Positions 27,001-48,000 of a DNA stretch of 64,000 nt are shown one piece after another; position 1 is the first letter of the stretch; the number at the start of each line of letters is the position of its first letter. The stretch comes from an uncultured Planctomycetales bacterium (GTDB taxonomy: Bacteria > Omnitrophota > Gorgyraeia > Zapsychrales > JAHFFX01), in the NCBI GenBank assembly GCA_964612665.1, contig CAZTCI010000001.1, positions 508,896 to 572,895 of the forward strand, given 5' to 3'. A model generated the notes under the pieces. It had not been told where the DNA came from and did not search any database. It was given only the letters and a program-made list of their open reading frames with translations. A program made the translations under genes and the position numbers.

Positions 27001-30000
27001 GATCACCAACGTCCATGGGTTAGGAACTTTTTTAGACAAATGCGCGGACAAATGATCTGAAATGGTTTCTTCCAGCGCACTCTGCCAGATATATCGTTGA
27101 GAACGACCGGCAAGAAGTTCGATTCTTCTGGATGAAGAAACGATATTTATATTAAGAAAATCAACATTCTGTTGCCTGTGGATTTGCTGTGCCGCCAGCT
27201 GGACAACGCTATGTAGGATAAGGCCGGCTAACGCGGGTTGATTGTTCAGTTTCAAAAGACCGACGACAAATCTGCGGGGAAGATAAATGACGGGGCCATT
27301 GTCATTCCATTCCGTCGCAGCGACAGCCACATGACGCCAGTTGTCCGCATAAAGGAATGGTTGGCTCTCATCTTCGCGATCGCGAACCAAGATCAATTGA
27401 CTTCGAAGAAGGATGTCAAACAAATCGCTCGCCGCGACGAAATCAAACAATCCTCCCCGAATTTGATCCCACGGGATATTCATCAACGCACTTAAACTCG
27501 CGTCGAGAATTGAGCGATGCAACTCCATGTGAGTTAATAACGGTTCAACATAACGTTCATTCCTTCGACGAACTTTGTCGATTAGTTCCTGGATTTTCTT
27601 GTACTCTATATTCCATGCCTTCACTAACCTGCCGTTCTCATGATTTGTCATGACACCTGCGGCGGCCATCAGCATGAGGGAAGCCGTCACCGCAATGAGA
27701 CTAAAAGACCAACCACCGCCGAGCTGCTCCCATCCCAACAAAGCCTTCGCTTGATGATCTTTGTGATTAAATCTTTTATCGTCTGAATTAACCAGGGGCG
27801 TAATATCTTGAGCCATGGGCAGCGGCTCGATATGATTTCCGTTCGTGGATTTTTCTCTTGGCTCCCGTAAAAGTGAAGCCTCGTAGCCAATACCTCGATC
27901 TTTTCCATTATTTGGCCATAAACGATATTTCTGCAAGAACGAAGGGTCCTTAAGACTCTTTTTCAAATTTTGAATCATGATTCGACTCTTTATATCGCTT
28001 TTGAGAAATTCATTCCTTAACCTCAGAATGATATTCACAAACTGCTGTTGAGTTACAAGGACTCTTGTTTCTTTAAGCATCTGGTGTCCATAATATTTTA
28101 TGGCCATGCTGATGAGTTGCTTGATATCAGACTTTCCACCGTATGAATTCTCACTATATTCCTCAATAACTTTTCTGATCGCTTCGATCAAACCTGGATC
28201 ACCTTCCACCCGTCGATATTCTTCTTCTGTGATATAAACTGCATTCTCCTCGGGAAGCAGCATGACATCACCATTCGCAAACGGGCCTTCTATTTTTAAA
28301 AGACCGTCCCGCTTGGCTATCACGTGGCCAACTTTATAATAACGGTGTTCGACATATAAAACATCATTCTTAACGGGGTTAAAGCGGCGTCCAGGCATTT
28401 GAAAACGCCACAGAGGATATAAATTCTTTTCCAATTTTGAGATGATCTTAAGACTTATTGGATAGAGCGTATTCTTGCGAGGCAATCTCGCGCCACGGAT
28501 TTTCGCAACGGAAACTTCACATATCTGAACAAGACGCTTATCGGAGATCTCCATTATTTTGGGATTGTCCATAAGGCGATTGAGCGCTTCGCGCGCCTCG
28601 ATGAGTTGTTTAAGCACCGGCCGCATCTTGGCGATCACGTTTTCAGATGGAGTGGCTTTTTGTAGACGATATAGCTTGGCATCACGAGAAACTTTGGAAC
28701 GCTGATTGATCTCTGAATCCGTAATGCCCAGTTGGTTGGCTTGCGTGAGCAGTTGAACCAGTTCTATTCGAAGTTTTTTGAGATCTGGCCTTTGTTCTTT
28801 GAAATATTCCGTCAGGGCCATAAGCAATTTAGAGATAGTCGATGCGTGCGGCAACGTCCTATTTCCGGCTGCAATCATACTGATCGTGGTCTGATCCACC
28901 CCAGATAATTTTGCCAAACTCTCCTGATTTAATCCTTGCTCAAAAGCGTTCGTCATCAAGACGAGTACACTTCTAAATTGTTCCGCCGGAGATCCTGCCA
29001 TAGGCAGTCGATCCAATTTACTTTCAATCGATGCAATCGTATCTCGCCTTAATTGCGCCGGAGCCTCTCCTAATATTTTGCGCAGCGTTTTGTCATCAAT
29101 ACCCAATCTCGCCCGGATGGCCCGTCCCGAATATTGGCCTTCCTTATTAAGTCTCTTGATGTAATTCTGAAGGTCAACGGGAAGAATCACCATCACAGCC
29201 AATCCCGACAGGATTTTTAATACAATTATTATTCCTTTGAGGCCGATCAAAAGCCACGTGGATTCGAGGGTGATCGAGGAGAGTTTCTCCGTGTTTTCGT
29301 TTGAAGATTTTTTCCCAGGTTTGTCTTCATACTGCGCCACTTCTTTTAATTTCGACGCCAAACGATCAATATAGTCCTGAGCCTCGTCGGTGACGACGTA
29401 ACCCTGAGCTTCCAGGACATCCAAAACTTCCAGCACAAAAGCGGCCATCATCAAATAATGAATCAAATTTCTACTTTTCCAAGAAGACCATTCTCGAGGA
29501 GAATTTTCTTCTACATAGATCGGTTGAGGAATCGTTTCAACACGGCCTCCCACTTCTCTCAATTGCGAATGAATATTCTCAATCTTAGGAAGATAATCAA
29601 CATACCGCCACAACACATTTTCTTCTGTCTCGATATCCACCCCTTCGCGGAAATAATTCCAGGCCGTCACGATCATTTTCTGATCATAATCTCGCTTTGA
29701 AACGATTCCTTCCCGTCGAAAAACGTACTCACGATCAATCGTGCCCGAAATCATATGCATATAATACAGATCAATATATCGTCGGCCGCCGTTATTCCAT
29801 GGTTTTAAGTCCAAGTTGAATCGTTGATTGGCCTGGAAAATAACCTCGGGGTTAATCAATGTTCTATACAATAGAAGTTCCGTACCAATGGAATCGATGG
29901 TTCTCGTATCCGTGTCGATGAGTATAATTCGGTCTGTTTCCGGAGATAAAATCCCCTCGTCGTGCCAGTATTTGACAAAAAGGACCGCTTGAAGTGAATC

Positions 30001-33000
30001 TTGCCGAACGGCTTGGTCATTGTGCATTGTCGCCCAAACACTATGCATGCGCTCTTCAGGAAATTCTTCTGTAATTCTGGTGTAAATCTTTGACATTTCA
30101 AAAAGCGGTTCGGCTCCTGCTCGCAAGAACACAATACGCGTGTTCTTCCGGTATTGCTTATTCTCTTCGTGGGATCGAGGATATTCTTTGATACGCATGA
30201 ATACGTGTTGTATGAAATCCATCAATCCCAGTCTGCGCTCGGCGCCATGACCCAAAAATGTCGTCAAATGTTTAGTATCCAAATAGTGTTGATACGCTTT
30301 GGCAAACATTGCTTGATCCCCCGCAGAAAAGATTCGTCCGAGGGATTGAATACTCTGATTACGCGCGCGAACATTATCTTCATGTAATCTGAGTCGATTT
30401 AATCTAACCGAGGCAATGGCCGCAAATCCTGCCAGGATTTTAAAGATCAGCATTACACCCTTGATGCCGATTATGATCCACGCGGCGTCGAGGGTGAGGG
30501 CGGGAAGCTTTCCAACATCAGATGTTGGAAAGGGCGGGTTCAACCTGCGGGGTTGATGTCCGTTGGCATGCTTCTCTTGCGGATGGGTGAACTTTTCCGA
30601 GGAAAACTTCTTTATATCTTGGTCGCTCCACTCTTCTCCAAACACCTTTTTTAAATCCGATTTATTTCCGTTCTTTCCGTTCCTCTCCTTCTTTGCCAAA
30701 TCGTCATAGAATTTTTTCATGATCTCATCTTGCCGACGATCGAACTCCTCGGCGGAGAGAGACCAGTCATCTCGCTCTCGTTTGTATGCTTCCTCCGGTT
30801 TCCGATTCTGATTTAACCAAACGTCCTTAAGAACATCGTAGAGATTACACAACATGCGATTCCCCGCAAATTGCCTTAATCCCTCCCGATTGTCCTTATT
30901 CTTCAATATAATGCGGGCCATTTTAGTCTTCTCGAGATCCTGCTTGAGAAGGTGAACTAGGGCTTCATGGCGTCCGAGGTTTATTTTGGCCTCCCCGAAC
31001 ATGTCTTTCACAATTTGAACAAAAAGCTCAGGACCGATCTCCCTCATCGATAGCCAGGCATGCAAGACGATTTCTACTTTTTCTTCCTCGCTTTGAATAC
31101 GATGATGCCAAATCCAGATTTCATCAGAATTTTTGAGACCGCCAGAGGCATGGGAAGATCGAGAAAGGTCCCCATAGATCACACCGACGACGAAGAAGAC
31201 CACGATCAACATTTGTATCGGCGAGAGAACCGTCGACTCCACTCCCAATCCCAAGGCATTCATGGCCGTTGGTTTCCCGGGCCCGCGGAATGCTGTGAGT
31301 TCATTCAACCTGCGGGGTTGATGCCCGTCGGCAATTTCATTCGAAGACTTGATGTGGCGGAATCCTCGGTCGGAGATGTTCAATGTGAACCCATCCTCAT
31401 CAGAGAAACTACTGTAAAACAAAATCTCCCGGGCCAAATACGTTTCGTTAAACTCGATGACCAGCGCCTCACGCTTTTGGCCCATCTCCAACAGATCGTT
31501 CCACAAGAATGTTCTTGAAAAACGAAGTTCGCCAGCACCGATACGAAACGTAATGATGATGTCATTTCCGATGAGCCGGCCTTTCACAAAATAGATCCCT
31601 TGATCTTCCGTCACAATCCGGATTCTGGAATGTCTCAACAGCGTTGAAATCGGCAATTTGATTACTTCTCTGATATGATAAACTTTCTGGAGGGAATATT
31701 CGGCGTAGAAGGACAGCTCGTCTGCATCTGGAAGATGAAGGATAAAGTCATGAATCGGCGGCAATCCGCAGGCGGAATTGGTGAGCATGGCCATGATCAT
31801 AAAACGGATCAGCGTCGGGCTGCGAGTGAAACCAGCGACCTTAAGCCAGAATAGCCATACGATCATTGCCGTAATCAAAACGGCGAGGAAATATGCTAAG
31901 AAAGCAGCTGATAATTTCTCCTCAGAAGACGTCTTCCACCAGGTATATTTTTCCTTCATCTCATGATAGGAATTCAAAATAAGATTTAACGTTCCCTTCA
32001 CGCTTTGTTCCGTTGTCCCCCGCTCGGTGCTGATGTCTTGAATCGTCCATCCATTTAAGATCAGCGTAATAATCTCGCGCTGCGGCGGCGACATTTGATT
32101 CAATAGGGCCCGACGATGTGGATCCAATGATTGAGAATCGCGGATAATTTCGCCCAGGATTTGTTTCCGTTGAGAAGCACCCGCGCCTTGGAAATGAATG
32201 TTGATGCCTTCATGCAGCGGATATAATTCATCGCACCTTTCTTCCCGTTCAATTTGTTCTCTTAGGGGTTTCAAAGACAATTCGTTCTTAAGATCACGGT
32301 ATCTGAGTAATCCTCGACGGGCGGTGATGATCACCGTAGTCCACTTAATCTGCAATAGTCGGGCCACATCCGCCGGATGATAACCTGCAATGGCAAACGG
32401 AAGAATTTCTCGCTCCTTTTCCTCCAGCTGATCAAAGATCTCTCGATGGTCCAAGAGAAAATCTTGTTTAACCTCTCTGAGAATATTGATGAATTCTCGA
32501 CGGTTGGGAGATTTCAGGAAGAAATTGAATTCCGCATCTCGATCGTTGCGGATAACCATCATGGCCAACATGCCGGGTAAAAGGAGTATGACCAAAAAGT
32601 AAAGGCCCTGTATTTCTATAAAAATGATCTGTGTAAACGCGATCAAGACAAGCACGGACGGGAATACGGCGGAAAGTTTTTCCACCTTCCGATCTTGCGA
32701 TGTGGGGGCCAACTCTTTCTCAACAAGCTCCCCACGATATACCATCCGCTGAACAAGGCCCATCGGATAATTGATTTCTTTTAAGTCACCCTTATAGGCT
32801 TCACGCCGGATAACTTCATTGAGCAGGCGAAGTTTCTTTTTGATCTTTTGGACCTGATCTTTTTCTTGCGCACTTAAACTTTGATGATTAACGTATTTTT
32901 TGTGAAGTGTATAATCGTAAACGCTGAGCGAGATCGTCTGTTGTTCTTCTCCAACAATAACGACATTACCTTGATCCCCGGCTGGTTCGATGAAGAATTG

Positions 33001-36000
33001 ATACACAATTCCCTCAGCATAGAGATAATATTGGATTTGTGCATGGCTGTTATTAAAAATGCGGATATCATCAACCGAAAGATAATGCGGCCCATCAGGA
33101 TGATTGTGCAGGTCCAAATAAACGAGGGGATAATCTGGATTTAGTTCCGGACCGACGGAATCCTTATCGCCTTTGACGATACTGTAAAGGTCCCCTTCCA
33201 AGGATTGATGGGAAACTTCAAAAGGTAAATATCCAGAGGCGACGGTGTAAAAACGATCAATCGCGCGCCAGAACTCCGGCGTCCCGACGGCCGCGGCAAA
33301 TGGTCGAGCGCTGTAGCGTGTTCCTTCCTTCGCACTAATAATATCCTGCTTTATCTGATCGAGCGTCATGACTGGCCGACGCTGGATCCGGGAGATAAAC
33401 TTCCGACGGATGAATTCCTGGGCTTCCAGTTCATGGACGGCCATACCGATTATCGCGACCGCCGTCAGGCCGAGCAGGCTAAGCCAATCGGTATAGGCGG
33501 AAAGTTTTTCCACCTTCCCAACCCCGGAGGTTGGGGAGGATAATAATTTTTGGCTAAGATCTGCAGCCACATCCAAGTTTTCCAACACTTTCGTCGCATC
33601 TTTAGAACTTTTAATAAAGACAACCGCCTGAGAAACCGCCGCCGATATTGTTTCTATTTCGCCGATCATCGGAAAACTTCTCTTCCAAATAGCAAACTGG
33701 TGATTCCACGCAGCCAAACGCAGTTTGATGGCCAGATACCTCTTATCGGCCCATAACTCCTTCACTTGATCTCGGGCATGGACCATCGACGGGATTCGGT
33801 CCAAGGACAGGAGCAATCTTTCCTGATTTTCCCGTCGTTGTGCTTCCTGAAGTTCCCGTAATTCTTTTCTAATTTGCTGTAGTTCTTTTAAACTATGGAA
33901 CAATTGCTCAGTGGACGGGCCTTTAAGGACCGTCCGCGACATAGCTGCTGCCATTGCCCCCATCCCAGCAGAGAGCAATATCTTTCCGACGGGGATTCCA
34001 AACCATAACGCGGTCCCCCCATCTACACCTACGAGGTAAAGATGGATCCCCACTCCATACAACGCCAGTGCAATCATGACGGATGGAAATATGGCGAAAA
34101 GTTTTTCCACCTTCCCAACCCCGGGGGTTGGGGAGGATCTGAGGATCACCGCCAGCATTTCAATTAGTCCAACCAATCCCTTAAACACAATCCAAATCCA
34201 CACGGCTTCGATCGTGACGGCGGAGACGTTCTCGATGGGATTGTGATCGAATTCTTCTAGCGCATCGATTTTTCCGTATAAATATTGGGCCAAATGGCGG
34301 ATATCTTTTCGATAGTCGTGCGTCTTAACCAAATCCCAGAGGTTCAATTGTTCCCATTGATCGCCGGCAGCTTCGAGAGCTGCTTGGATTATCTTTAACC
34401 ATTCCTTCGCATAGAATTCTCGATGACGGAAATTGGACGCCACAATCCAGTGCAGTAATTCTTCTTCGGAAGATGTCTTCAACATCTCAATCGCGGCCCG
34501 GCGTTTGGCTGGCGAAGTGACCACCAAATCATTCATCCGCAAATGCTCGTTGAGAATGTGCTTCAGGCGCCGAGTCCTGGCAGAATTCGCCAAGCTGGTT
34601 TTATTTGTGAAGTCATCAAGAGAATTGAACGGATTGTTTAGCTTGCGAACCATCACCACAAATTCGGTCTGCGTCATTGTAAATCCACTCAAAAGAAAAT
34701 CCACCTCATCAGCGTAATTAAGGAAATATAGAATTTGTTTTTTGGTGTTTTTCGGGTGCTTCTGCAATTCTCGACGATGTTGCTCCGCATTTTCTTTCTT
34801 CTCTTTTCGTCTTTCGTTCTCTTTCTCTAAATCCGCCCGTGCCCTTTCACGAGGATTCTGAAATAGAATCTCTCGACGGTTTTCGGACGTTCGTTCCCAC
34901 GACATCGCAAAGACAAAGATATATGCCAGCAACATCCACGGACTGAACAGATAAGTACGAACTCCGGAATGATGGACGATTTGTTTCTGTGGAGTTTCTT
35001 CTTTAGTTGACAAGCCAACTTTCAGGGCTTGGGCGCGGCTGGCGGAGAGGTAAATCAACCGTTGAACAAACATGCCCGCGATCATCAGCACCGTAAAGAC
35101 ACTCATTCCCGTCGATAAATCGATCGTCACGGCGCGGTGTTTTTCGATATCAGAAGAACGACTTGGTGTTTTATCTTGTGCATTCAACCTGCGGGGTTGA
35201 ATGGACATCCTGTTCCCCTTCACACCTCCGAGGCGCGAAAGAGCATTATTTCTTAGCTTTTTACGAATACTTATAATTTTTAACACTGAACGAATATGCC
35301 ATTCTCTTAGCCCCAACCGCTCTTCCCGGATTTCTAATCTATCCCCAGGATATTTTTCAAAATCTGCAGTCACAATTTCGATAAGCCGTTCCCTTTTTTC
35401 TAGCTTTTCTCTTAAACGCACTCCCGCGGCTTTCTGCTTTAAGAACGTTAAATCATAATCCGGCCATATTTTGCTAATAATGTAATTCGACACTTGTTCA
35501 ATGTATTGATGCGATGATCCCATCTGTTCGACAATGATGCTTGATGATTGATCCAAAGCTATTTTGCGGACTAACACTTCTTTTTGCGGGAGCGTTAGTC
35601 CATACCTATCTCCTATATCGTTAAGGGTCCTTACAAGTCCTTCTTTAGTGATGGCATAGCCACTACTCTCCATAATGTCGCGAGCAAAACTTACTCTATT
35701 ACCATGCTCCATCGCTGTCTCCTGAGACGATAGAGAAGATCGGTATTCCTGGATCCCTTTTTGGCGATCTCGGTTTCGCGCATATGTATTTCGTTCGCCT
35801 CGAATTTTTAAATTAATTCCATTAACGACATATGTCAATAAGCCTACGCCATTGCGCCGATCAAATTTGATCACACTGCTGCGAATAGTTTTAATGAAGT
35901 CATCTGTTCTTTCCTTTAGGAAGGATCTATTCCATCTCTGTTTAACTAAGGGCATTTCTGTCAGACCGGCGATGAGGACTTCCATCGCCAAACCATCTTT

Positions 36001-39000
36001 CTTATCTTGAATAAGGTCAATTAAACGGCTCTGTTGCTCACGGCTTAAATATCCTCTGGAATGACGTGGCATGCCCAAGATCGTATTGACAGCGGCTTCA
36101 TCTCTTTGCTGAGGAGCCCAAATAATTTTAAGTTTAGACTCTTTAATAACCGGCACAGGAGGATTCAGCCCGTACCATTTCTTCATTTCATAAAGAATTT
36201 CTACTGAGCTTTTTCCTTTTAGATCGTGATTTTTTGCCCAGTTCAGCAGAAGCCCCTCTAAACATTTTCCTCCAAACCCTGGAATACCTGTATGAATAAT
36301 ATCGCCCACTTTTAAATCTACTATCTTCCCTGCACGGCGATGATTGGCTAGATGTTGAAGGATCGCCCATTGCAACCGCTCTTCAAGTTTGTCCCAGGAG
36401 AATTTCCTCGCCCGTCGGAATTGATCCAATACCGTTTCCAATTCTTCAAGGGTTACTGGTTTTTCTTCTGCCATCGTCATAAGAACAGCAGATGCGCAGA
36501 GGACTGCTATCCACGCTTCCGCACCTACGAGGTGCTGATGGGTAACCATGGCGACGAAAGCGGCGGAAATGATGATAAAGCGGAAGACTCCGTCGAGGAA
36601 ATCATTCAGTCGGCTGGGTTGAACAAATACAATTCGACGCAAAATGGAATTCACATTGTCTTGGCCGACATACGCAAGCGCCGCCGCAATTCCTACCAGA
36701 ACAAAAATCCATAAGGATGGACCAACGGCCATCAGTTTTATCTCTCGATCCCAAAACTGACTTGGCCCACACCGGCGGACAACAAATTTCTTTTCCAAAT
36801 CCTCTTTGACCGTCGTCACATCTTCTTGGACGATCGCGTCCGCCACACGTAAAGAAAATCCCATTTGCAGGGCCTGACGGCCGGGCATGGATGGGCTATA
36901 TCTCAAGCGAAGCCCCTGAATCAACGCGCGATAGGGCGCTTCCTGTCCCCGGAGAAACTTAAGGAAGGCAAACTGTTTGATTTCTTTGGTGGATACGGAG
37001 GTTTCAATATTATTTCTAAGATACGCTAAAAATTCTTTGTAATAACTGACCCAGTGCTCAAGGATTCTTTCCAGCCCCAACTCATTTAATTGTTTGTTCA
37101 AACGATTTGTGTTCCCAAAGACCAAATCTGTCGGTTTAAATTTATCAAATGTATCGGAGGTAATAGGACTCAATAAACAGCGCTCATTTAACGTTGATAC
37201 ACTGAGCTCATGCTTTTCGCCCCCGATTCTGACCCACCGCCCCAATCCCCGTCGGGCCAGGGCAATGAGATATTCGGGTTCGATATCAAATTGATCTTTC
37301 CCTTGATAATAAACGTGAATGTCCAGGTCCTTGATCATGGACCACAATGGGATTTGATTTTCGCTAAAAAGATAGGTCGAGGAGCCGGTGACCGTGATGA
37401 TCGGAGCCTCCACAATGGATAACGTAGCGACTTGCTTTAGAAGTTCGATTAAATCGACCGGCGGTAAAGCTGGATTGTCTGGCTGAACAATAAACTGGCG
37501 CTCAGGACGATAGTAGGAAATGTGTTCATCTTGGTCCACGATCAAAACAGGCCAATGCACTGTTTGGACCGCCGCCAGTAATATCAGCGCGTAGACCGCC
37601 TCGTTCAAACCGATCAGATCTCCGTGGGCCAAAAGACCGGATAAAGCCGCGAGGATGGCGATAGGGCGGAAGAGTTGTGCGATCAACCTGCGGGAGTGAA
37701 CAGACTTGATAAAGCGGAAAATTCCGTCGAGGAATAACATCACCCTCTCCGACGGCGGCGAAGTCTTGAGAAATTCGTAAAACGCGCGGAGGTTTTCAAG
37801 GATGACGCGGGATTTGGAGATTAGAACAGCGGCCATCAAAACAATAATGAGAATTTCCGCGAGGTGAAACACATTATTCGACGAAAAATTTGATTTTCTC
37901 GTCGGTCTTATCCGTGCAGTCGAAAGGAAATCGATTCGATGGGCGTTCAACGTCGCGGCATCTAATAATTCAAACCCTGGGAATGTTTGATCGACGATAT
38001 GTTTAATCAAATCCGCCAACTGATCCGCAGGGATTTTGATTAGATATCCTGGAATTCGGTGCATCTGCTGAGGACTAATTTCCCTCATCTCTTCTGCAGT
38101 CAAAAATTGAACCGCGGCCATCGATACAACCCGGCCTTCTAATCTGTTGACAGTCCATTTTCGCGACATTATACTTTGAATCGAAAAGGAGATAGATTGA
38201 TGACTTCTCTTCAAGATGCTATGAAAATCATTAAACCGCTTCAAAACCGTTTCAAGAAAAGCCATAAGTCCAGAAGAAAAACGAAGATTGCCGACGATCT
38301 TTTGGGTGCGTTCAAAGGTGCGACCGAAGGTAAATCTTCCAGTCAATGTGTTCGAGAATTGAGAAATTCTTCTTATGGTAAGTTTAAATAACCCTTCCTT
38401 GCTCTTGGACTCCGATGTCCTTGTCAGCTGGTTGACGCTCGAAGAAGATATTCTTACCCATAAAAAGCTCTGGGAAGCTCCCCACAAAATAATGACAATG
38501 GTTGAGGAAAATTCTTCTCTCGGTTGTTCAACGATTATCAATCTTATGGAAATCAGGTTTGTGTTGCGTGCTAAGAAGAAATTCAGTGAGCATAAGATTA
38601 CATCTTCTCTTAATAAACTCTCCGAGATTCTGAAGCTATTCATTCCAGATGAAATCAACCTATTAAAGGCGAATGAACTCCAGTCCAAATATCTTTCATT
38701 ATCGCCAACCGACGCTATCCTTCTGTCTGTGGCCACAACCCTAGACAATGTTGTCCTAATCACCCGCGATCGAGAATTATTGAAAGCTGCCTCAAAAATT
38801 GTCTCCGCATCAACTCCTGAAGAATTTCTGGCGAAACGCTGATCTCTTCTGTTCCAATAAAAATTCCCCACCAGCATTGCAATTAGCCCAACCACTCCCT
38901 TAAACACAATCCAAATAAAGCGGAAAATTCCGTCGAGGAATAACATCATCATCTTCGACGGCGGTGAGGTTTTAAGAAGTTCGTAGAACGCGCGGAGGTT

Positions 39001-42000
39001 TTCGAGGATGACGCGGGATTTGGATAGCAGAACAGCGGCAACCAAAATAATGATTAGAATTTCCGCGAAGTTAAAGGAGTTATTCGTTGGAGAATTCGAT
39101 TTACCCGTCGATCTCGTGGCGAGAGCTCTGCTGTCCTGAGATCTTCTTTCTGTGGTGACGAAAGTTCCTACCCTTCTTAAAATTTTGATAACTCTATCCC
39201 TTCCCTGAAGGTTATTAGAACTCTGTCGAGATTGGGGTTGTTCAACGATCGGCAAAGTGACGAAAAAGCTGGCGCCCTGGCCCAACTCGCTCTCCACATC
39301 AATCTCTCCATTGTGCGCCGTAATAATGCTTTTCACAATGTAAAGTCCCTGGCCGGTCCCGTCTTTTCCTTTCGTCGTGAAATATGGCTCGAAGATTTTA
39401 GAGACCAGCTCGGGCGCGATCCCGGGGCCATTGTCTTTCACCTCGAATTGCACGAGGGGCGCATTGTCGATTGGCGTGACGATCAACTCAATCTTTCCGT
39501 CTGGTATCTGCGCTAAGGTATACACCGCATTCTTTAGGAGATTGATAAACGCATGCGTCATCTGAATTTGTTCGACATCGATTCTAATCCCGGCGGCAGC
39601 GGAAAAATCAATCTGAAGTTGCTGTGGATCGAAGAGAGCGAAGATCTCTTCAAAATGTCCTCTAAGATTAGTCAAGAATTCCTCGACGGAAATGACTTTC
39701 TTCTTACCTTTCCCGGAATAACTGAGATAAAAATCAATGATTATTTTAAGCCGGTGGGTAACGCTGTGGAGGGTTTTGAGGACTTCACGCTTGGCTTTAG
39801 GCTCAACGATACCTTGATCGATATTTTTGTCTTGCGGATGCTGGCGGAAATCTTTGACGAGCTGCTTCCAGGCGCGATGAAACTTTTTCAGTTCAGGTAA
39901 ATCATCGAGAAGGATTTGCAACGCCAACATAATTAACCTTTCGCGCTGTTCTTGTGTAAACGGTTGGGCATAATTTTCAAGCACCTGTTGTAATGCCGGA
40001 TTGAATAACCCACCTATTGGCCTTTTCTCTCTTAAAGATAAGGTTGTTCTGTCATGCTCGGGGAGAAAAGGCCTAATACTAGACTTTTGCAATGCAAAAG
40101 TCAGTAATAACTCCGCTCGCTGTTCTCCTGTAAGCAGCTCAGCATATTTTTCAAGCATCGCCCGTTTTAATTCTGGGTTTGATAATGACTGAATATCGAC
40201 ATAAGGTTGATCAGATGCGGCATGGTTGCGAAGAATCTTCAAATCATTAATTTTCTCGAGAAGATTTAAATCCATAATATTCTCACTCAAAGATTGCATA
40301 GCGGATTTGAATGGTTCCGGCAAAATATCGGCATTACCGTTTGCCGGATCAAAGAATAAAGTAATCACGGTCAAATCATTGCCGATTTCATGCAGGAAGA
40401 CCGGCCCCAAATCAGCGATGATCCCCTGCCAATAATCTTCTTTTGGTATCCGCATTACCATAACGACAACCATCGATAGTCCCAGCAGCCAATTGAACGG
40501 CATAATGTATACGGCGTTTCTCTCGGTTGGGAGCTTCATAAATACATATTCCCTTCTGGCCACTGTCTGAATTTCAAGACCAAGCGGCTTTCGGTTTAAC
40601 GTTTTGAGCATTTGGGTGATAAAGTTTATCCGCCGCAAAACTGATGTGATCGGCATGCTGCTGCCATCACCCAACGTCGTCCCTGGTTTTTCTTCCAGCA
40701 GCATCTCCATGGTCTGCCCAATAACTGTCAAGGCCCCGGACAGATTTATGACGACGGGCCCGTCTGTAATAGAATTTCTAAACGCCGTCCCCATCACATT
40801 GCTTTTCCGCACTAAAGCGATCAAATCCTTGGCCTTTGGTGTCGTATCATTGCCAAACACAGGGTCGGATTCTGCCTCCTGCTTGACGTTTAGCATTGCT
40901 TCCAAAATCAATCTTGCGGACTCGCGTGCCCGTGTCGGATCTCCTAACGCTTCGCGTTGGCCATTAACAAATTTAACGAACTTAACCAGCTCCGTGCGCA
41001 GAGCCTTAATCCATTGCGGCCATTCTAGGTAATAAAATAATTGTTCCAGGACTGCCATAATAAGGAGCGTGCGTTCTCCGACGGGTTGGATTGGATTTCT
41101 AGATATTTGTTCTTCTTTCTGTTCAATGTCTAGAATCAAATGCCAGACTGGCTCTACAAATGCTTTCCTCTCAAGCAAGCCCCTTGTATATTTGAAGAAA
41201 TCATTCTGAGATTCATGATGACGCAATACTCGACGGGCAGCCAAACGGGCCATGGGATATTTCATGGAGCCGATTAAATCAGTCAACGTAAGATAATTTT
41301 TTACAAAGCTGCGCAATCCTGGCTCTTCAATCAATCCTTTAAACTCAATCAGCTCGGAAATAAAACGGAAATAGAAAACAAACCGTTCTCCGCCGGCCTT
41401 ATAAAGGATCCGTTTCCTTCCCGTGGCGGAAATAGGCCTATCATTTAAAACTTCGATCAGCCAAGCAGCGATCAAAAGTCTTAATGCCTCCATGTCCTCA
41501 TCCTCAACCGGCCCACTTAAAATCCACGCGCGTTTTTCGTCGGTGGAAAGGGCCAGGAGATTATCGAGACCAGTATACTGGCCGCGCACCGCCATCAAAA
41601 ATACCGGAGCGCTCAGCAACATCAAAGACATTCCCATCCATAAAACGGTTTTGATGGCGAGTATAACCAACATCAATCCGCCCACGGCGCCGACCAAGGC
41701 GATGGAATGCAATTTCTCCTCGAGCTGCGCGATTTTATTTTCTATTCCATTTGTCTTTTCAGATTCTTGGTCTTTCTTCCCGTTTCCATTCAATTCAGTG
41801 GAATACGCTGTCAGAGTGAATAATTCTTTTAAGTCCTCTTCCCATTGCTTATGAAAAGGAAGGCTCTCTGCATATTCCTGGAAGAGACCTGCGCGCAGCT
41901 GACGCCACACCATATGGTCGAGCAAGACCTGACCATTGATGACAAATGCCTGCGCAAAGTGTCTTAATTCCTCGACGTAGGCCGGATATTTCTGTGAGAT

Positions 42001-45000
42001 CTTTTGTAAAGAAGACAATTCCTCGGATAGAGAATCTTTCTTAAGCAAAGCATCCACGTATTGTTCAATCTGTTGGCTTTTAGCATAGTCATGGTCTTGC
42101 GATAAACGGATACGTTCTTCAATACGATCCGTGGCTGTTTCAAAAGCAATGATCCAATCGGCATCAGAACCGGAGAATTCCGAGACATAGCTTGATACCC
42201 TGGACTTTAATAAAAGCCTGTGCGTCGTCCCGGCCTCACCGTTACGGGCGATACGGGCCATGATTTGTCGCATATCACGTTTGGAAAAAAGAACGTTGTA
42301 AAGAACAGCCACAACGCCGGAGGCAACATTGGTCAAAATATTCACCCCTCGGCCTCCCATGGGACTGGTAATAAGAATCGTAATCTGTAAGCGGCCTTTC
42401 TGGTTAATAACATAACCGGCCTTTTCAAATTGACCGGCTTCTTCCCTGCGCTTTTCAGGATTTTGATCGATCCCTAAAACAGTCTCAATCTTGATATCAT
42501 TGTTGGGCCGGCCTCTTTCCAAGATGGCGTTTAATAGTTCCTTGACATGATGGGCCGAAGCGATATCTTCCGTCGCGATAAAAACCGGCCTTCCTGACAA
42601 TAAAGCATTCATAACAATTTCGATTAAGCTTTGGTCCATCTCTTCCACGGTCTCATATCCGATGGAGGAATGATCAACCCGGATGGATTTGATATCGGAG
42701 GGTTGAACATACACTTGCATGTTCAATCTTTTCTTTAAATGCTGTTCAATCGTCGGACTCATCTCTGAACCACTGACCGCGGCATAGCCATGTCTATACA
42801 ACTTTAAAAGGGAGTGATACGTCAAGGCCGCCAAAAGCCGGCGCGGATTCTTTTCATTGTCGATACCGGAACGCGCTTCTATCATACGTTGTACCTCGGG
42901 AGAATAAACACGCAAAATGTCCGGGCGTTTACTATCGTCGGGAATAGGCAATACATTTTCACGTTTAGCATCTAAACAAAAATCATGATCCTCTTTAAGG
43001 TTCCAGCCAATCACCGCAAAGTCCGCCAGCTGACGCAAATGCGCATCAGAGATTTCATCTAATTCCCGACGATTTCTAAGAAATTCCATAATCTTCCGCG
43101 GGTCACGCCAAACCACTTGTCTTCCCTGATCGGAAGAAATAATCTCTTCGGGATTCGTAGCCCAATCTTTCAACAAAAAGAAGACGTCCTTATCAAAACG
43201 ATGCCACGCTGTATAGGCTGCGATAATTCTCTTCACTAATTCTTTATCCTTACCGTTGACGATGATGTCGATCGACAGAGTATTCAAGACGGAGAAGATA
43301 TCCCAAAGATAATAATCCGCCTCATCCAATAAAGCCCGACGATCAATGGTCAATGGTTGTTCTAAACTTTTTCTGGTCGAAATTTCTCGCGCCAGGGCTG
43401 TTAAAGAAATATATCGGATCTGTGCTTTGCCGGCTTCAGCCCAGAGAGAGGAACCAAAAAATCTAGTGAACCTTTTTGACTGGCCCGGAATAAGTAGTGT
43501 ACGGGACCCTTCGGTGATGCAGCTTACGGAATGCCCCAAAGAAGCCAAAATCCCGGCCTGACTGTTAAAGCCGTCTTGGGCCAAATGATCTGTCGTGGTG
43601 ACGATATCCGTTGATACACCCATTTTCTCCAGAGCATCGGCCGCCATCGACAAGGCCATGGTTTTTCCGGCGCTGGTATCAAACTTGACAAAATATCCCC
43701 GCGATCCGTCTTCGGTCCTCGGTTGCATCAAGAGTTCAGCAGTTTTAAGTTGTGCGGGGCGGCGTTGATACTTAATCATAATATTCTTATCAGCCATCCT
43801 TCGACGCGCAATGACCTCAAATTCCTCTAATGATTCCCTAATTACGTCGGGAAAATATTCGCTCAAGGATAAAGGCAGATCGGTCCACGCCACGCCATTT
43901 TGTATCGATGTTTTAATAATTTCTTTTTGTTCACTGAATACGTTCAGTTGAGGGGTGGGAGTCTCGTCGATCTCCCCAATGATATTCGCGGGCGTAGATA
44001 AAGATTCCATCTGAAGTCTTTCTGCCTCCTCTTCCAACGGCGAAACTTTTTCCGGACGCTGGAACTCAAACGACATCTCGGGTTCAGGAGGCTGAAAAGC
44101 AATTCCAAAATAATGGGCGAGATGATGGACTGACTTAAAGAATCTTTCCATTGATATCTCAAATCTTCCTTGTTCATAATTCTTCACTGACGACTGGCTT
44201 AATTGTAGAATTTCGGCAAATTGAGTTTGAGATAAGTCCAGCTCCTTACGAAGATGGGTTAAATTCAAGAGATATTTTTTCAGTAAAGCATTCTGTTGGC
44301 TGTTTGGAGAGGATTTCGCTTCTTGTTGAACATCATTGATGAATTCTTTCACTTCCGTCGGGACCTCACTGGAAACATTGTCCATTAAGAAATCTATAAC
44401 CTTCTTCATTGACTTTGCGCTAAGTTTCCATGCCTTGGCAGAACTTGCGTGATCTACAATATATTTTTGCCCTCCCATCGACGCGATCATTGTCTCGACA
44501 GAGTATCTCTGCTTAAAACGATTTAGTAAATGCTTAATCGGCTCGCTCAATCTCTTAAAAATTTCGCGTCGTTCTTCTCTTGATGCACGCAAAGCTTGTG
44601 CATACAAAAGCTGTATCTGCTGCTTCCACTGCTTAATGTCTCGAGACCACTCACCAATGGGCTGAACATCCTCATTCTGCCCACCGAAAGTAGAGATGAT
44701 GATAGATTCATCGATGAGCTGAACATTCTCATTCTGCTCAAAAGCGATAGGAATCTCGTCCGCCTCTTGTAATGAAATCAAGCTAGAGATTGGCTTTTCT
44801 TCTTCAATGAACTGAGTATCCTCATTCTGCTTACCGATCAAACTTTCATCGACCTCAGGCAAAGTTAATTCAAAAGTCGTTTCTTCATCGCTTTCTGGAG
44901 TAAGGATGATGATAGATTCATCGATGAACTGAACATTCTCGTTCTGCTCAAAAGCGATAGGAATCTCGCCCATCTCCCCAATTCCATTCGTGGGCGGAGA

Positions 45001-48000
45001 TAAAGATTCCATCTGAGATATTTCCGCCTCCTCTTCCAACGGCGAGACTTTTCCCGGAAACTGGAACTCAAACTTCATCTCGGGCTCAGAAGGCTGAAAA
45101 GCAATTCCAAAATAATGGGCGAGATGATGGACTGATTGAAGAAATCTTTCCATTGGTATCCTAGATCTTCCCAGTTCATATTCCGACACTGACCACCGGC
45201 TTAATTTTAGAATTTCGGCAAATTGGGTTTGAGACAAGCCCAGCTTCTTACGAATGCGGGTTAAATCCGAAAAATATTTTTTCAGTAAAGCATTCTGTTG
45301 GCTGTTTGGAGAGGATTTCCCTTCTTGTTGAACATCATTGATGAATTCTTTCACTTCCCTTGGAACCTCACTGGAAACATTGTCCATTAAGAAATTGATG
45401 ACCTTCTCCATTGACTTTGCGCTAAGTGTCCCCGCATCGGCAGAACTTGCGCGATCTACGATATATTTTGTTACTCCCATCAACGCCATTTTCTCGACAG
45501 AGAATTCTTGCTTAAAGCGATCCAGTAAATGCTTAATGGGCTTGCTCAATCTCTTGCGTTGTTCTTCTCTCGACGCACGCAAAGCTTGGACATACAAAAG
45601 CTGCATCTGATGCTTCCACTCGTTAATGTCTTGAGACCACTCACCCATGGGCTGAACATCCTCTTCTTCTTTCCGTAGAATTTCTTCCGTCCGTTGGGAC
45701 TCAAACTTCGTTGCGGGCTCAGAAATCTGAAAAGAAATTATTGAAAACTTTTGAAAATAATTCTCCACAATTCTTTCTAATAACGGTGTTTCCTGCATCC
45801 TCCAAGGACGAATTGTTTTGCCTTTGTCCAAATCATTCTCATCGCGATGAGAAAACTTCGCCATCCCCAACATCACGCCCGCGAATCCCAGAAGATTAAT
45901 GAACGCGATGAAATCCATTGCATAAAAATGCGCCGTTCCGATCATGGCCAGGATGGATGCGATGATCTTTACAAAAATTCCGTTGATCATTGTAAACAGC
46001 ACCATCGCTCCCATAACGACCGACCAAACCACCCAACCACCGGCCACGTTGAGAAATACGATAGAAGACAATGTGCTTATCCCCGATGGGACCAATTCAA
46101 GTTGCTCTGGATTGGTTTGAGCAATATAAGATCTAAATATATATAGTTTCTCAAAGTAACTTTTATTTATGTCGGAAACGAGATAATCTAGACGATGATG
46201 ACTAATTCCCTTTAATCCTTCCAACCGTAACATCGCATTAACAAAATTCATGGCTAATGAATTATTGCCTTTGCGGAATAAAAACCATTGGCTCGATTCA
46301 TCGTGCCCAAAAGTGCCTAAATAGAAACCAAAAATGCGTTCAATACGACTATTGATATCCTTCTGTTGCTGACCGTCCTTGACCCATTCCCCCAGATGAT
46401 TCATCATCTTGAGAATCCGTCGATGAATATCCTCTTTGGATCTCGCTCTCAGTTCTCCTGCGACATTCAAGGCATAATCCTCACTTGGATAAAAGCGTTT
46501 TCCGTCCTTGCCTAACAGAAGAATGATATTAAAATTCTTAAGCCAAATTAAGAAATCTTGGGTCGTGGTTATACGGTCCGAGACGAAATTGAATAACAAA
46601 CGCAAAATCTCTCCTCGAACTTCGTGGGAATTAATCCAATAATTCCTCTGCTCATCCATCGACGGCCATATTGCTAAAGTCGAAGGATCCGGGTTTCTGA
46701 TCATTTCTTCTTTAGGTAGCTGTAAGGCATTTTCCCAATTCCAAGTCGGCATGGCCCGTTTGAACATCGCCAGTTCTTTTGTCGCCACATCAACAGAAAC
46801 ATCCCGGTCTTGCTGAAGAACCGGATCAAAAATCACAACAGTTGGATTTTCCGAAGTCCCCTTCACTGCCATCCTCACAGCACCCGCCATAACGATCGAT
46901 GCGATCCCCAGATAACCAATCATCGAATGCCCAAGCCAGGCAGCCGTCAATACCTCCAAAAGCCCGGTAATTCCGACGATAAGAACCCAGTGATACCACT
47001 TTGCTTGAGCCAATAGCTCATGGAAAAATTCCTTTGTGTCTTGAACGATGACCTTCCAACTCAGCCTGGTCCTCCATGCCCGTTTCCACTCCATGACCAA
47101 GATGAGGAATTGAATCAAAATAATCAGGCCTGTTACGATTGTGATGACAAGATCGGCCGTCGGTGAAAGTTCCTGTTGGGGCACCACATAGGCCGCCTCG
47201 GTCAAGCTTGGCAGAATCCCCTGCAAAAACAAAACGCCGGCAAGCACCAACAACAGCGCAATAGCCACGAATACGAAATCAAAAATTCCTGCTACCGTTA
47301 CCAGATCTCCAAATCTCTCAGAAAACTTCGAAGATAAAATCCGTGCATTCCAGCCAAACGGAGAAACGAGGCCTTCATCCCCTAGGTGGATTTCCGGTAA
47401 ACGTCTCAAATCCAAAATCAAATGATCCTGGCCAGCCACTTGGCGTTCTTTTATTTGGTAAATTCCTCTGAAAAAGTCATTGTTCCGTAAGAGAAGATAA
47501 TCAAATTGGGCGGCTAATGTTTTAAGGAAATTGTTTTCTGGTTTGAAGAAGTCCCGCGCTCGACGGTACATTCTTTGTTTGGCCTGCGTTTTGTTCAGTC
47601 CTTCATGTTTTTGATAATAGGCGCGCACGGCCTCGTGGTTATATCCGGCCATATGATAGACGCCGAGCTTAACGATCCTTTCGTTGAAATAAAGCTCAAG
47701 CGATACGAGACTTGACTCTTTAGATGATCCGAATAGATCAATCGAGACAAGATTTAAATTTTCATTAACCTCAATCTGTTGAACACCGTCCCAATCGTGA
47801 GTTAATTCCAAAACCCATTGCTTGAAGGATTCTGATAATTGATCATCATTAACAAATCGCATCGATGCCAGCGTCGAAGAATTTTGGTCCATCATTCCCG
47901 CGGTAACAAAAATCATCGCCCACAACACCCCGATTCCACCTACGAGGTGGAACGTGGTCCAAACGGCGATTAGGAAGGAAGGTATAACGGTGAAGCGGAA

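Follow-up and report, generated by a model that had tools for sequence, protein, structure and literature searches.

VapBC type II toxin-antitoxin (TA) systems (PF01850/PF13470) rely on a PIN-domain toxin and a VapB partner, which typically carries an AbrB, RHH, PhD/YefM or HTH DNA-binding domain. Compact TA cassettes with their own promoters are also held by chromosomal integron arrays, where they are often reversed, lie amid heterogeneous cargo and are thought to protect the arrays against deletion. In turn, bacterial antisense overlapping genes embedded in other genes have been reviewed (PMC7457138; bioRxiv 10.1101/2020.11.18.388249). The embedded antisense cases reported so far mostly concern ORFs that are short, evolutionarily young and functionally uncertain and that were born inside an older gene. 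Giant 'multi-enzyme' proteins are described for Omnitrophota (Gorgyraeia) by West-Roberts et al. (2023; bioRxiv 10.1101/2023.11.21.568195) and in a second paper by Nielsen & Lui (2026; bioRxiv 10.64898/2026.06.07.730766). Neither paper mentions opposite-strand genes in a giant ORF, the terms 'antisense' and 'opposite strand' being absent from both, and we found no description of a nested antisense operon in the giant-gene literature searched. For the giant ORFs of Omnitrophota, the question whether they are genuine genes translated without a break is still open, and the case for them rests mostly on gene prediction. A selfish or accessory operon lying backwards in such an ORF is a natural probe, as opposite a giant frame that was not needed the cassette would gather antisense stops as fast as its ordinary relatives do, with about 4–5 in each.

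Here we analyze a DNA stretch of 64,000 nucleotides (hereafter the window) in which an intact TA-like operon lies antisense in a giant ORF and belongs to one clade of cassettes that were likely recoded to be stop-free in the enclosing frame. Expression, proteomic or toxicity evidence is lacking for either strand.

The giant frame and the cassette within it

The minus strand of the window forms a single stop-free frame which continues past both window ends, so that its true length exceeds 21,333 codons. According to the original prediction, made from the sequence alone, this phase is open through the whole cassette; re-translation revealed none of the stops that would have refuted it. A Pfam scan detected many unrelated sense-encoded domains of at least 15 distinct families, among them HATPase_c, HTH_3 (several), SecA fragments, transketolase, DAO, sigma-70 region 4, GerE and methyltransferase, and the frame thus qualifies as a giant-gene ORF, which is defined by a length of 10,000 codons or more and by numerous different Pfam domains along it. 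The complete HATPase_c domain closest to the cassette is encoded around 400 nt before it in the giant direction, and a domain of such significance (E=2e-22) adjoining the cassette indicates that the giant frame is truly coding there. Hydrophobic helices occur about every 400 aa in the giant frame near the cassette.

The segment obtained by reading the giant frame through the cassette is enriched in Ser (15.9% vs. 6.7% in the whole giant frame) and Arg (11.2% vs. 6.7%) and depleted in Pro (0.4% vs. 3.6%). The codon-usage score of the giant frame, 26.9 ± 7.4 bits per 300 nt, drops to 3.5–9 across the cassette; nowhere else in 64 kb does a plus frame score clearly higher than the giant frame when judged by the giant's own codon usage. 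Directly after it in the giant direction, an ATG-led sense segment begins (MAAVQF..., from position 38130 downwards). The window has many other plus-strand ORFs of 95–307 aa, and the ten longest tested gave no Pfam match; a long antisense ORF alone is therefore no evidence of a nested gene, and these ORFs are probably chance shadows of the giant frame. A motif search for BrnT returned nothing; a brnTA pair was detected by searching for start codons with a preceding ribosome-binding site.

The promoter of the cassette (TTGACA-17-TATACT) matches the consensus at 11 of 12 positions and is the top-scoring site within 37600–39400 (Table 1). It is followed by two adjacent, co-oriented small genes whose ORFs overlap by 17 nt (38375–38391), and this arrangement under one promoter meets the layout of a type II TA operon. 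The 63-aa ORF shares the codon register of the giant frame, its position 3 lying on giant position 1, while the PIN ORF is offset: the first position of its codons falls on the second of the giant codons, and the third positions of both frames coincide. The promoter, the AAGGAG ribosome-binding site, both ORFs with their overlap and the placement of one ORF in and the other out of register had all been put forward in the original prediction, and all of them held. An independent Logan contig (1.1 kb, SRR12313480) is 100% identical over 37709–38831, and the small ORF is on record in one Logan contig. No RNA family was detected by an Rfam scan of 37000–39800.

Table 1. Positions of the features in and around the nested cassette (numbering of the window)
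Feature	Position	Strand	Remarks
Giant stop-free reading frame	1..63999	-	21,333 codons; no stop on re-translation
Complete HATPase_c domain of the giant frame	39246..39570	-	Sense-encoded, E=2e-22
Junction repeat, copy A	38863..39129	-	Codes for the hydrophobic helices AEILIIILVAAVLL and IWIVFKGVVGLIAMLVG
Segment of the giant frame across the cassette	38147..38842	-	232-aa segment, atypical composition
Junction repeat, copy B	37633..37923	-	82% aa and 84% nt identity to copy A over 200 nt
13-nt direct repeat, left copy	38084..38096	+	CTCATCTCTTCTG
13-nt direct repeat, right copy	38839-38851		CTGATCTCTTCTG; spans the PIN stop codon; spacing 755 nt
Sigma-70-type promoter	38147..38175	+	TTGACA 38147-38152, 17-nt spacer, TATACT 38170-38175
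Shine-Dalgarno AAGGAG	38186..38191	+	8 nt upstream of the small-ORF ATG (38200)
63-aa antitoxin-like ORF	38200..38391	+	MTSLQDAMKII...LLGAFKG...RELRNSSYGKFK
155-aa PIN-domain (VapC-like) ORF	38375..38842	+	Pfam PIN; acidic residues; fold

The 155-aa ORF encodes a genuine VapC-like PIN protein, for which ribonuclease activity and growth inhibition are inferred from the sequence and the predicted fold. In the search against PIN/VapC models proposed in the original prediction, it passed the Pfam threshold for PF01850 (E=9.5e-9, 36.4 bits, cut-off 23.6) and scored 28.1 bits against PF13470 (cut-off 27). An alignment of 25 sequences shows D12, D14, E59, D113 and D132 to be invariant; lack of the conserved acidic quartet (D12, E59, D113, D132) would have refuted the original claim, which thus held. 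We identified 24 free-standing PIN homologs of 145–170 aa. The AlphaFold2 model (pLDDT 94.4) retrieved FitB (2h1c), PAE2754 (1v8p) and Shigella VapC (5ecw) from the PDB by Foldseek, each with probability 1.00, and with target-normalised TM-scores of 0.70–0.81; the fold search was needed, as no chain was matched when PDB sequences were searched with a profile of the PIN alignment. An exact-sequence lookup of the 155-aa protein returned no record, presumably because automated annotation counts this DNA as part of the giant ORF.

The 63-aa protein is a member of an unnamed family of ~60-aa proteins encoded upstream of this PIN family, with 291 database homologs. In ordinary (non-nested) loci of Bacteria and Archaea, the small partner precedes the PIN gene in 38 cases out of 39. 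It has a conserved C-terminal motif, LLGxxxG...S.....R...YGK, and its model consists of two helices predicted with low confidence (pLDDT 67). No Pfam or NCBIfam family was assigned to the small ORF of the window or to six of its homologs, PADLOC has no family for it, and the criterion of a recognised DNA-binding or antitoxin domain was not met. Hence, of the original designation as 'antitoxin-like', the conserved partnership with PIN held, while the antitoxin role, i.e., neutralisation of the PIN protein, is an inference whose sole basis is the order, overlap and co-conservation of the two genes, without binding data.

As for the flanks, the helix IWIVFKGVVGLIAMLVG of junction copy A is encoded at 38866–38915 and ends just before the cassette in the giant direction. 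Copies A and B are 1206 nt apart, and between them lie the cassette and an 84-aa sense segment (37879–38130). An iterated HMM search yielded only three local copies of the junction motif, and the modules share nothing but the junction. The 'junction TM helix' noticed originally is indeed positioned next to the cassette, but it belongs to this three-copy local repeat and is not a general giant-gene junction. That the cassette always follows a TM helix was rejected as a rule, with a hydrophobic helix found just before it in three of nine nested loci. We also rejected the view of the giant ORF as an array of the integron type, in which a junction or attC-like element would recur universally, given the three local copies of the motif and the lack of conserved flanks; attC sites at the cassette borders, as a criterion, were not met, since between-lineage similarity stops at the -35 box and the PIN stop codon. 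The 13-nt direct repeat (shuffle P=0.01) is a weak candidate which may possibly represent an insertion scar. A convincing one surrounds the cassette of lineage L008, where a 38-nt flanking direct repeat with a hairpin has a spacing of 798 nt (266 codons). No flanking direct repeats were found in nested lineages other than L008 and the window.

Conservation and codon choice in nested lineages

The cassette and its closest relatives make up ten nested lineages (the window, L001, L002/3/5, L004, L006, L007, L008, L029, L066 and L067), whose cassettes are all antisense, stop-free in the same phase relation and located in frames open over the whole loci, up to 20.4 kb. The closest of them with a taxonomic label come from MAGs labelled Omnitrophota or 'Planctomycetales'. 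In a neighbour-joining tree, all nested cassettes group together as a single clade; the ten lineages thus share ancestry and are not fully independent, although their third codon positions are only 43–48% identical. At the DNA level, similarity between lineages starts with the -35 box and ends with the PIN stop codon, and similarity of the giant frames is limited to the cassette, the flanks being unrelated. At least L001, L006, L007, L066 and L067 carry TTGACA followed 17 nt later by a TAT-type -10 box, a similar promoter site lies upstream of the cassette in L005, the GGAG of the Shine-Dalgarno sequence is kept in most nested lineages, and the overlap of the two ORFs varies from 14 to 17 nt.

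Both ORFs are intact in nine of the ten lineages, at only about 50–60% identity. In L029, the PIN gene is broken or truncated and the giant frame is still open; the openness is therefore independent of an intact toxin. The near-identical strains L002/L003 and L005 point to the same conclusion, as they are distinguished by an in-frame difference of 660 nt (220 codons) that removes a neighbouring hicBA pair. In L002/L003, this difference joins the cassette to a truncated hicB remnant, and the promoter region of the PIN cassette is absent.

At the first, second and third plus codon positions, the small ORF has nucleotide identities of 0.70/0.81/0.48 and PIN of 0.66/0.82/0.43, and amino-acid identity of the respective regions reaches 0.60 and 0.61 in the plus frames vs. 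0.38 and 0.51 in the giant frame. Within the small-ORF region, it is the first codon position of the giant frame that varies the most, which is the opposite of a selected giant-frame protein. Purifying selection acts on the proteins of the plus strand, and what is selected in the giant frame over the length of the cassette is merely the absence of stops, without amino-acid constraint. Two of the criteria for an antisense embedded gene, namely intact ORFs on the two strands beyond chance and selection acting on each frame, are fulfilled.

We found that antisense stops over the whole cassette are zero in all ten nested lineages, compared to one of 36 ordinary cassettes (Fisher p=2.7e-9), which have on average 4.6 stops in their best antisense frame. 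In this PIN family, the wobble-on-wobble phase carries the fewest antisense stops anyway, with a mean of only 2.7 in ordinary PINs. The small ORF avoids TTA, CTA and TCA, whose reverse complements are stops in the giant frame: these codons are missing from the small ORFs of 8/8 nested lineages tested (per-lineage P 0.006–0.19), whereas the adjacent PIN gene uses TTA/CTA for 22–54% of its Leu codons in seven of the eight. Given the codon usage of the window's own PIN gene, its 63-aa ORF would lack all three by chance with a probability of 0.025. In turn, codons ending in T or C are avoided before Tyr in the nested PIN ORFs, as are those ending in T before His and Gln, and these ORFs contain 2–7 Tyr, His and Gln residues in total vs. 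a mean of 7.8 in ordinary PINs. Codon choices differ between the in-register and out-of-register gene exactly as the genetic code predicts.

The dicodon avoidance had been proposed originally for the PIN ORF of the window, and the junctions quoted in its support (AAA-TAT, ACC-CAT, CCC-CAC, CTC-CAG and GAG-CAT) are all present. Its logic held, but its significance for this ORF alone did not: in the permutation test that accompanied the proposal, synonymous shuffling left the antisense frame open 43% of the time (P=0.43), with P(open) of 0.04–0.43 across the nested lineages. A stronger signal comes from the in-register small ORF and from the comparison across lineages. Taken alone, the window provides moderate evidence beyond chance, which becomes overwhelming with the nine other nested lineages. 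Ten diverged lineages with zero antisense stops are therefore direct evolutionary evidence for selection on read-through, and their stop-free codons suggest selection for an unbroken giant frame.

Proposed mechanism and competing explanations

In the explanation we favour and consider likely, the operon consists of its own sigma-70 promoter, a ribosome-binding site, the ~60-aa partner and a translationally coupled VapC-like PIN ribonuclease, all embedded backwards in a giant multi-domain ORF such as those reported from Omnitrophota. One clade of PIN modules, to which the cassette belongs, would have been recoded such that one antisense frame is devoid of stops. Ribosomes on the giant mRNA are inferred to read through the cassette, giving a filler segment of ~232 aa, and the cassette may meanwhile be transcribed and translated from the opposite strand. 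A premature stop in the giant frame would be harmful, and only stop-free cassettes would persist in such genes.

The same present-day state could have another history, which seems unlikely to us: an operon that was an ordinary neighbour was overrun by a giant ORF that had lost its stop, and substitutions later removed the antisense stops. Few changes would be needed, considering the mean of 4.6 stops in ordinary cassettes, one of which has none, and of 2.7 in the PIN wobble frame. Moreover, giant frames form a mosaic of domains that are unrelated and frequently incomplete, among them sense-oriented antitoxin-like HTH_3/Xre, MraZ and NTP_transf_2 domains, which suggests accretion of neighbouring genes. 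Yet, a single clade in the same phase with unrelated flanks is better fitted by a pre-adapted cassette moving between giant genes, and the 38-nt direct repeat around the L008 cassette, with copies 798 nt (266 codons) apart, as well as the in-frame presence or absence of a 660-nt neighbouring cassette between near-identical strains, also speak against overrunning. We consider it very unlikely that the captured TA genes are a dead relic, no longer expressed, whose DNA now serves as filler coding for the giant protein. Decay does occur, as the truncated PIN in the open giant frame of L029 demonstrates, and the PIN cassette of L002/L003 is without its own promoter region. However, the catalytic residues are invariant, nine of ten lineages keep both ORFs and most keep the promoter and ribosome-binding site, and the most variable plus third positions, together with the higher amino-acid conservation of the plus frames, imply continuing purifying selection.

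That the two plus-strand ORFs arose accidentally, as shadows opposite real giant coding sequence, is all but excluded. In favour of this view are the many other plus-strand ORFs of the window (95–307 aa), with no Pfam match among the ten longest tested; against it, PIN and its partner stand free in dozens of bacterial and archaeal genomes without a giant ORF, the PIN protein has the fold and active site of its family, and only at this place in 64 kb does a plus frame clearly score above the giant frame by the giant's codon usage. Finally, the giant frame might not be translated as one unit, and its openness might serve a need other than a full-length protein, e.g., keeping a ribosome on a very long transcript and thereby preventing Rho-dependent termination of downstream modules; the cassette would then be the sole functional protein-coding information at this spot. 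The lack of protein-level constraint and the odd composition of the giant frame across the cassette are consistent with this, as is the start of the MAAVQF... segment immediately behind it. We regard this possibility as improbable, and even so ribosomes must still cross the cassette in the giant frame, which makes it a variant of the favoured explanation without contradicting it.

Implications and relation to known systems

The favoured explanation, a stop-free operon read through by the giant frame, yields a cheap general test, i.e., counting the antisense stops of any gene that lies inside a giant ORF. The locus is an unusually clean natural case of a long, conserved two-gene antisense overlap, and it indicates that annotation pipelines forbidding overlaps will miss genes inside giant ORFs. 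It also raises the testable idea that TA modules stabilise giant genes. A bolder reading, which at present is no more than possible, holds that giant ORFs have to be read from end to end and therefore came to host a guild of TA cassettes recoded to be free of antisense stops (BrnT/CopG, HicAB and DUF5647, for example, besides PIN and its small partner), which travel in frame from one giant gene to another. Such cassettes may be addiction modules that penalise deletions in a recombination-prone giant gene, or antisense brakes on expression. If true, this would be the first comparative-genomic evidence of selection keeping ORFs of 60 kb and more uninterrupted.

With VapBC systems the locus shares the PIN acidic residues, the VapC-like predicted fold, a small upstream gene overlapping the toxin gene, a single promoter and a wide, patchy spread in Bacteria and Archaea. 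It differs in that the partner represents an unnamed ~60-aa family without Pfam or NCBIfam match, no PDB chain matches the PIN protein by sequence, and the whole operon is antisense inside another ORF. The enclosing frame resembles the giant genes of Omnitrophota in its ORF far above 10,000 codons, its hydrophobic helices and its wealth of unrelated Pfam domains (HATPase_c, methyltransferase and SecA DEAD among them). The assignment of the window to Omnitrophota is an inference from the closest labelled relatives of the cassette, in MAGs named as Omnitrophota or 'Planctomycetales', and from the published accounts of giant genes. In contrast to TA cassettes of integrons, the cassette has no conserved attC-like flanking sites and its 'array' is a single uninterrupted reading frame. 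Similar to embedded antisense genes, the two coding frames lie on opposite strands with one gene wholly within the other. Unlike them, the embedded element is an operon of two genes, old and widely distributed, that has a promoter of its own; the arrangement is kept in ten lineages, and it is the enclosing frame that is without sequence constraint. Likewise, an engineered toxin-within-gene system places a toxin gene inside another gene such that mutations and deletions hit both, whereas the arrangement described here is natural and antisense, includes an antitoxin-like gene and a promoter, and is located in a giant ORF.

Anatomy of the cassette and identity of its products

We found that the minus strand of the window (G+C content of 44.7%) forms one giant stop-free frame, in which a plus-strand cassette of two genes is embedded antisense. 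The original prediction had placed at 38147–38842 a promoter, a ribosome-binding site, a 63-aa ORF and an overlapping 155-aa PIN ORF, with the giant phase open throughout. All these elements held and re-translation revealed no giant-frame stop in the cassette. The promoter-like site (11/12 match) is the best one across 37600–39400, and the ORFs overlap by 17 nt. The claimed phase relations also held: the codons of the small ORF are in register with those of the giant frame, position 3 on giant position 1, while those of the PIN ORF are offset, its third positions falling on the giant third positions. A complete sense HATPase_c domain is encoded in the giant frame ~400 nt before the cassette.

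Features of the window and of homologous loci (window positions unless a locus is named)
Feature	Coordinates	Strand	Details
Giant frame	63999–1	−	21,333 codons, open at both window ends
TTGACA	38147–38152	+	17-nt spacer to TATACT
TATACT	38170–38175	+	
Ribosome-binding site AAGGAG	38186–38191	+	
Small ORF	38200 (ATG)–38391	+	63 aa
PIN ORF	38375 (ATG)–38842	+	155 aa
Hydrophobic stretch IWIVFKGVVGLIAMLVG	38866–38915	−	giant frame, just ahead of the cassette
200-nt direct repeat	38915–39114; 37709–37908		84% nt, 82% aa identity
13-nt direct repeat	38084–38096; 38839–38851		12/13 matching, spacing 755 nt
Sense segment MAAVQFLTAEEMREISPQQMH...	37879–38130	−	84 aa, ATG start
BrnT_toxin, full-length match	10801–11067	+	88-aa ORF; E=9e-7, 29.5 bits (cut-off 34.5)
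CopG_antitoxin match	11071–11325	+	84-aa ORF; E=5e-9, over cut-off
Hairpins	19409–19447; 30539–30568; 31297–31333; 35163–35206; 37675–37705		
Further hairpins	33496–33541; 34093–34138; 34014–34052; 36510–36548; 49332–49370		
Tandem duplication, ~1 kb	43951–45739		300-nt copies, 85% identity, 1002-nt spacing
L008, 38-nt direct repeat	9669–9706; 10467–10504		37/38 matching; 798 nt (266 codons) apart
L005, gene island	6789–9794	+	at least 3 kb
L005, MraZ and NTP_transf_2	2–6700	−	sense orientation
L002 / L003 vs L005, 660-nt (220-codon) difference	591–890 / 644–943 vs 8149–9108		
L026, antisense-open cassette	3361–4055		232 codons
L009, PIN without antisense stops	9961–10440		

The 155-aa product exceeds the thresholds of PF01850 (36.4 bits vs 23.6) and PF13470 (28.1 bits vs 27) and has 24 free-standing homologs of 145–170 aa, with identity of up to 66%. 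D12, D14, E59, D113 and D132 are invariant in the PIN alignment. The AlphaFold2 model built from it (mean pLDDT 94.4) is best matched in the PDB by VapC, FitB and archaeal PIN proteins (TM-scores of ~0.7–0.8, target-normalised); a sequence search of PDB chains retrieved no similar one. Both plus-strand genes are real, the operon anatomy is intact, and PIN has kept its fold and active site. The protein adds a member to the VapC-like PIN toxins, its RNase activity and toxicity being inferred.

The 63-aa ORF fits no family in Pfam, NCBIfam or PADLOC. In 38 of 39 ordinary (non-nested) loci, profile search detected a homolog of it directly upstream of PIN, the loci deriving from Nitrospirota, Elusimicrobia, Ratteibacteria, Methanoperedens, Bathyarchaeota, Archaeoglobi and others. 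Database homologs (n=291, ~60 aa) are all designated ‘hypothetical’, and the conserved core of the family reads LLGxxxG...S.....R...YGK; we consider it likely that the family is undescribed. Based on gene order, overlap and strict co-occurrence, a toxin-antitoxin pair is the best and a likely reading of the two genes. Neutralisation of the toxin is inferred and not shown, and the ‘antitoxin-like’ status proposed for the small ORF is thus reduced to an inference. Its predicted structure consists of two helices and is of low confidence (pLDDT 67), which speaks neither for nor against such a role.

Nesting across lineages and selection against antisense stops

Homolog contexts were taken from exact-protein lookups, one genome per species, and metagenomes, and at each locus we measured how far an antisense frame stays free of stops around PIN. 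In every same-clade locus with a PIN protein at least ~49% identical to that of the window (L001, L002/L003/L005/L065, L004, L006, L007, L008, L029, L066 and L067), the antisense frame contains no stop anywhere in the retrieved locus; its length reaches 16.6, 17.7 and 20.4 kb, and the contigs measure up to 309 kb. Loci with a taxonomic label are MAGs assigned to Omnitrophota or, in some cases, to ‘uncultured Planctomycetales’. At all remaining loci, including one Omnitrophota MAG (L013) and ~70 bacterial/archaeal contigs, PIN is an ordinary gene with antisense stops. The nested cassettes form one clade in a neighbour-joining tree (without support values) and share an identical phase relation to the enclosing frame.

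With the window, ten nested lineages could be compared, in which the cassette is shared and the flanks are unrelated. Likeness between enclosing frames is limited to the 190–240 codons of the cassette; pairwise, the flanks gave no match at E<1e-4, except for the near-identical L002/L005. DNA similarity begins at the −35 box and ends at the PIN stop codon. At least the window, L001, L006, L007, L066 and L067 have TTGACA with a TAT-type −10 box at 17 nt, and L005 has a similar site. Sense domains of the enclosing frames include HATPase_c, His_Phos_1, Peptidase_M23, Asparaginase and Peptidase_S8. In L029 the PIN ORF is broken past ~residue 96 and the enclosing frame is still open over 15 kb; its openness is thus independent of an intact toxin, for which the comparison of L002/L003 with L005 can also be cited.

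In codon alignments of the nested lineages, nucleotide identity at plus-strand positions 1/2/3 is 0.70/0.81/0.48 for the small ORF and 0.66/0.82/0.43 for PIN, while amino-acid identity amounts to 0.60 and 0.61 in the plus frame vs 0.38 and 0.51 in the giant frame. In the small-ORF region, position 1 of the giant frame is the most variable, the opposite of what is expected for a selected giant-frame protein. A scan with giant-frame codon usage as the training set scored 26.9 ± 7.4 bits per 300 nt window-wide vs 3.5–9 in the cassette, and only at 38311–38821 in 64 kb does a plus frame clearly win. Over the cassette, the 232-aa giant-frame peptide has abundant Ser, Arg and Phe and is nearly devoid of Pro. 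Identity, codon usage and composition thus indicate that at this site the protein information resides in the plus-strand genes and that the giant frame is merely kept open; the plus-strand proteins are under purifying selection.

It could be argued that the frame is open by chance. In ordinary cassettes (n=36), the best of the three antisense frames contains on average 4.6 stops from the small ORF to the PIN stop, and only one (L026) has none, vs all ten nested lineages (Fisher p=2.7e-9). An in-register antisense stop arises wherever the sense codon is TTA, CTA or TCA; the small ORF has none of these in each of eight nested lineages tested. In the adjacent PIN gene, where these codons are harmless, TTA/CTA constitute 22–54% of Leu codons in seven of the eight, and TCA 8–38% of Ser codons in the lineages tested. 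Given PIN codon usage, the probability of their absence from the small ORF is 0.025 for the window and 0.006–0.19 for the other lineages. In the PIN phase, a stop requires Tyr to be preceded by a codon ending in T or C, or His/Gln by one ending in T. This dicodon rule, formulated in the original prediction, held, and the five junctions quoted for it are present, but its weight had to be corrected: after synonymous shuffling in the offset phase, 43% of the window trials (4–34% for other lineages) still had an open frame, so openness of the PIN ORF alone is not significant.

Wobble-on-wobble is simply the antisense phase poorest in stops for the PIN family, with a mean of 2.7 in ordinary homologs, the remaining two having ~7 and ~12; it is stop-free in 2/38 of them. 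Tyr, His and Gln together number 2–7 per nested PIN vs a mean of 7.8 in ordinary ones. As for shared ancestry, third codon positions are only 43–48% identical between nested lineages, and the absence of stops in every lineage thus reflects continuing selection, not ancestry alone. Selection acts against antisense-frame stops. The recurrence in ten lineages and this code-specific signature make the finding stronger than could be known from sequence alone.

Two non-nested loci, L026 (Brocadiaceae MAG) and L009 (Ratteibacteria MAG), also have a stop-free wobble-on-wobble phase in PIN, extending in L026 over the whole cassette; this may be chance, or these cassettes may formerly have resided inside a giant ORF.

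Repeats, possible turnover and other elements of the giant frames

The hydrophobic segment reported before the cassette was confirmed, although it is not the ‘junction’ it was taken for. The 200-nt repeat flanking the cassette codes for a hydrophobic helix pair, and iterated HMM search found no more than three copies, spaced by 402 and 392 codons, in modules with nothing else in common; it is thus a local repeat. Overall, the original observation is confirmed and its interpretation supported with three corrections. A Logan contig from SRR12313480, 100% identical to 37709–38831, independently supports the joining of giant sense-coding DNA to the cassette on its promoter side. The 13-nt repeat bracketing the cassette, whose spacing is no multiple of three, is weak evidence of an insertion scar. 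The 84-aa sense segment directly past the cassette is divergent from its promoter, has codon usage normal for the giant frame and matches nothing in Pfam.

In L008, the direct repeat flanking the PIN cassette belongs to a ~58-nt element forming a ~20-bp hairpin (AGAGGCGCTCTTTGCC...GGCAAAGAGCGCCTCT), conceivably an insertion or recombination site; no such flanking repeat was seen in the other lineages compared. L002/L003 and L005, strains 97.6% identical, differ by a frame-keeping presence/absence that in L002/L003 takes away most of the neighbouring hicB-hicA and ends ~20 nt before the small-ORF ATG, which suggests cassette turnover within the giant ORF with the frame unbroken.

Other elements were noted in these frames. 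A second toxin-antitoxin pair, of the BrnT-CopG type, lies antisense at 10801–11325 of the window. In L005 (Omnitrophota MAG JAHJHM010000107), the PIN cassette is the final member of a plus-strand gene island, antisense in a 10.2-kb stop-free frame, which also comprises a hicB-like ORF, HicA_toxin (E=8e-12), DUF5647 (E=5e-17), an unnamed ORF and another with weak likeness to retropepsin. Promoter-like TTGACA/TATACT sites accompany both the PIN cassette and the hicBA cassette, one each. Short conserved hairpins, e.g., TTCAACC-TGCGG-GGTTGAA, CCCAACC-CCGGA-GGTTGGG and CCATCTACACC-...-GGTGTAGATGG, recur within the giant ORF, several adjoining hydrophobic junction segments. Antitoxin-type domains are also sense-encoded: several Xre-type HTH domains (HTH_3/HTH_31/HTH_19 matches) occur across all four 15-kb segments scanned (4000–63999, minus strand), with weak MqsA_antitoxin and Xre-like-HTH matches at 34000–48999, and MraZ and NTP_transf_2 in L005. 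Together with many other, merely partial enzyme domains (SecA_DEAD 90–156 of 290, DAO 1–65 of 353, Transketolase_N 98–216 of 334), they look like captured genes accreted into the ORF. The tandem repeats at 43951–45739, with several sub-repeats, are a recent internal duplication of the giant ORF.

Possible function and comparison with known systems

In the mechanism we propose, the cassette promoter would drive a bicistronic mRNA, the small protein being translated from its own ribosome-binding site and PIN through coupling via the overlap; PIN would act as a metal-dependent RNase restrained by the small protein. Ribosomes on the giant mRNA would traverse the cassette and produce a filler segment. 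A stop there is inferred to be harmful, either as the downstream giant protein is needed or as uncoupling would end the long transcript, so only stop-free cassettes would persist. Cassette transcription, head-on to that of the giant gene, could modulate the latter. Toxin-antitoxin cassettes are thought to protect chromosomal integron arrays from deletion; by analogy, and speculatively, the cassettes might guard the giant gene.

The enclosing gene fits the ‘multi-enzyme’ class among the giant proteins of Omnitrophota, of which the most extreme case is described as having one transmembrane helix per ~370 residues (bioRxiv 10.64898/2026.06.07.730766). Genes antisense within giant ORFs are mentioned neither there nor in West-Roberts et al. 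(2023) or the companion lateral-transfer paper. The nearest results of a full-text literature search were general antisense-overlap work and an engineered gene-within-gene toxin construct; a prior description cannot be excluded. Within the literature searched, the arrangement is likely undescribed, and it combines known kinds of organization, namely embedded antisense genes and toxin-antitoxin operons.
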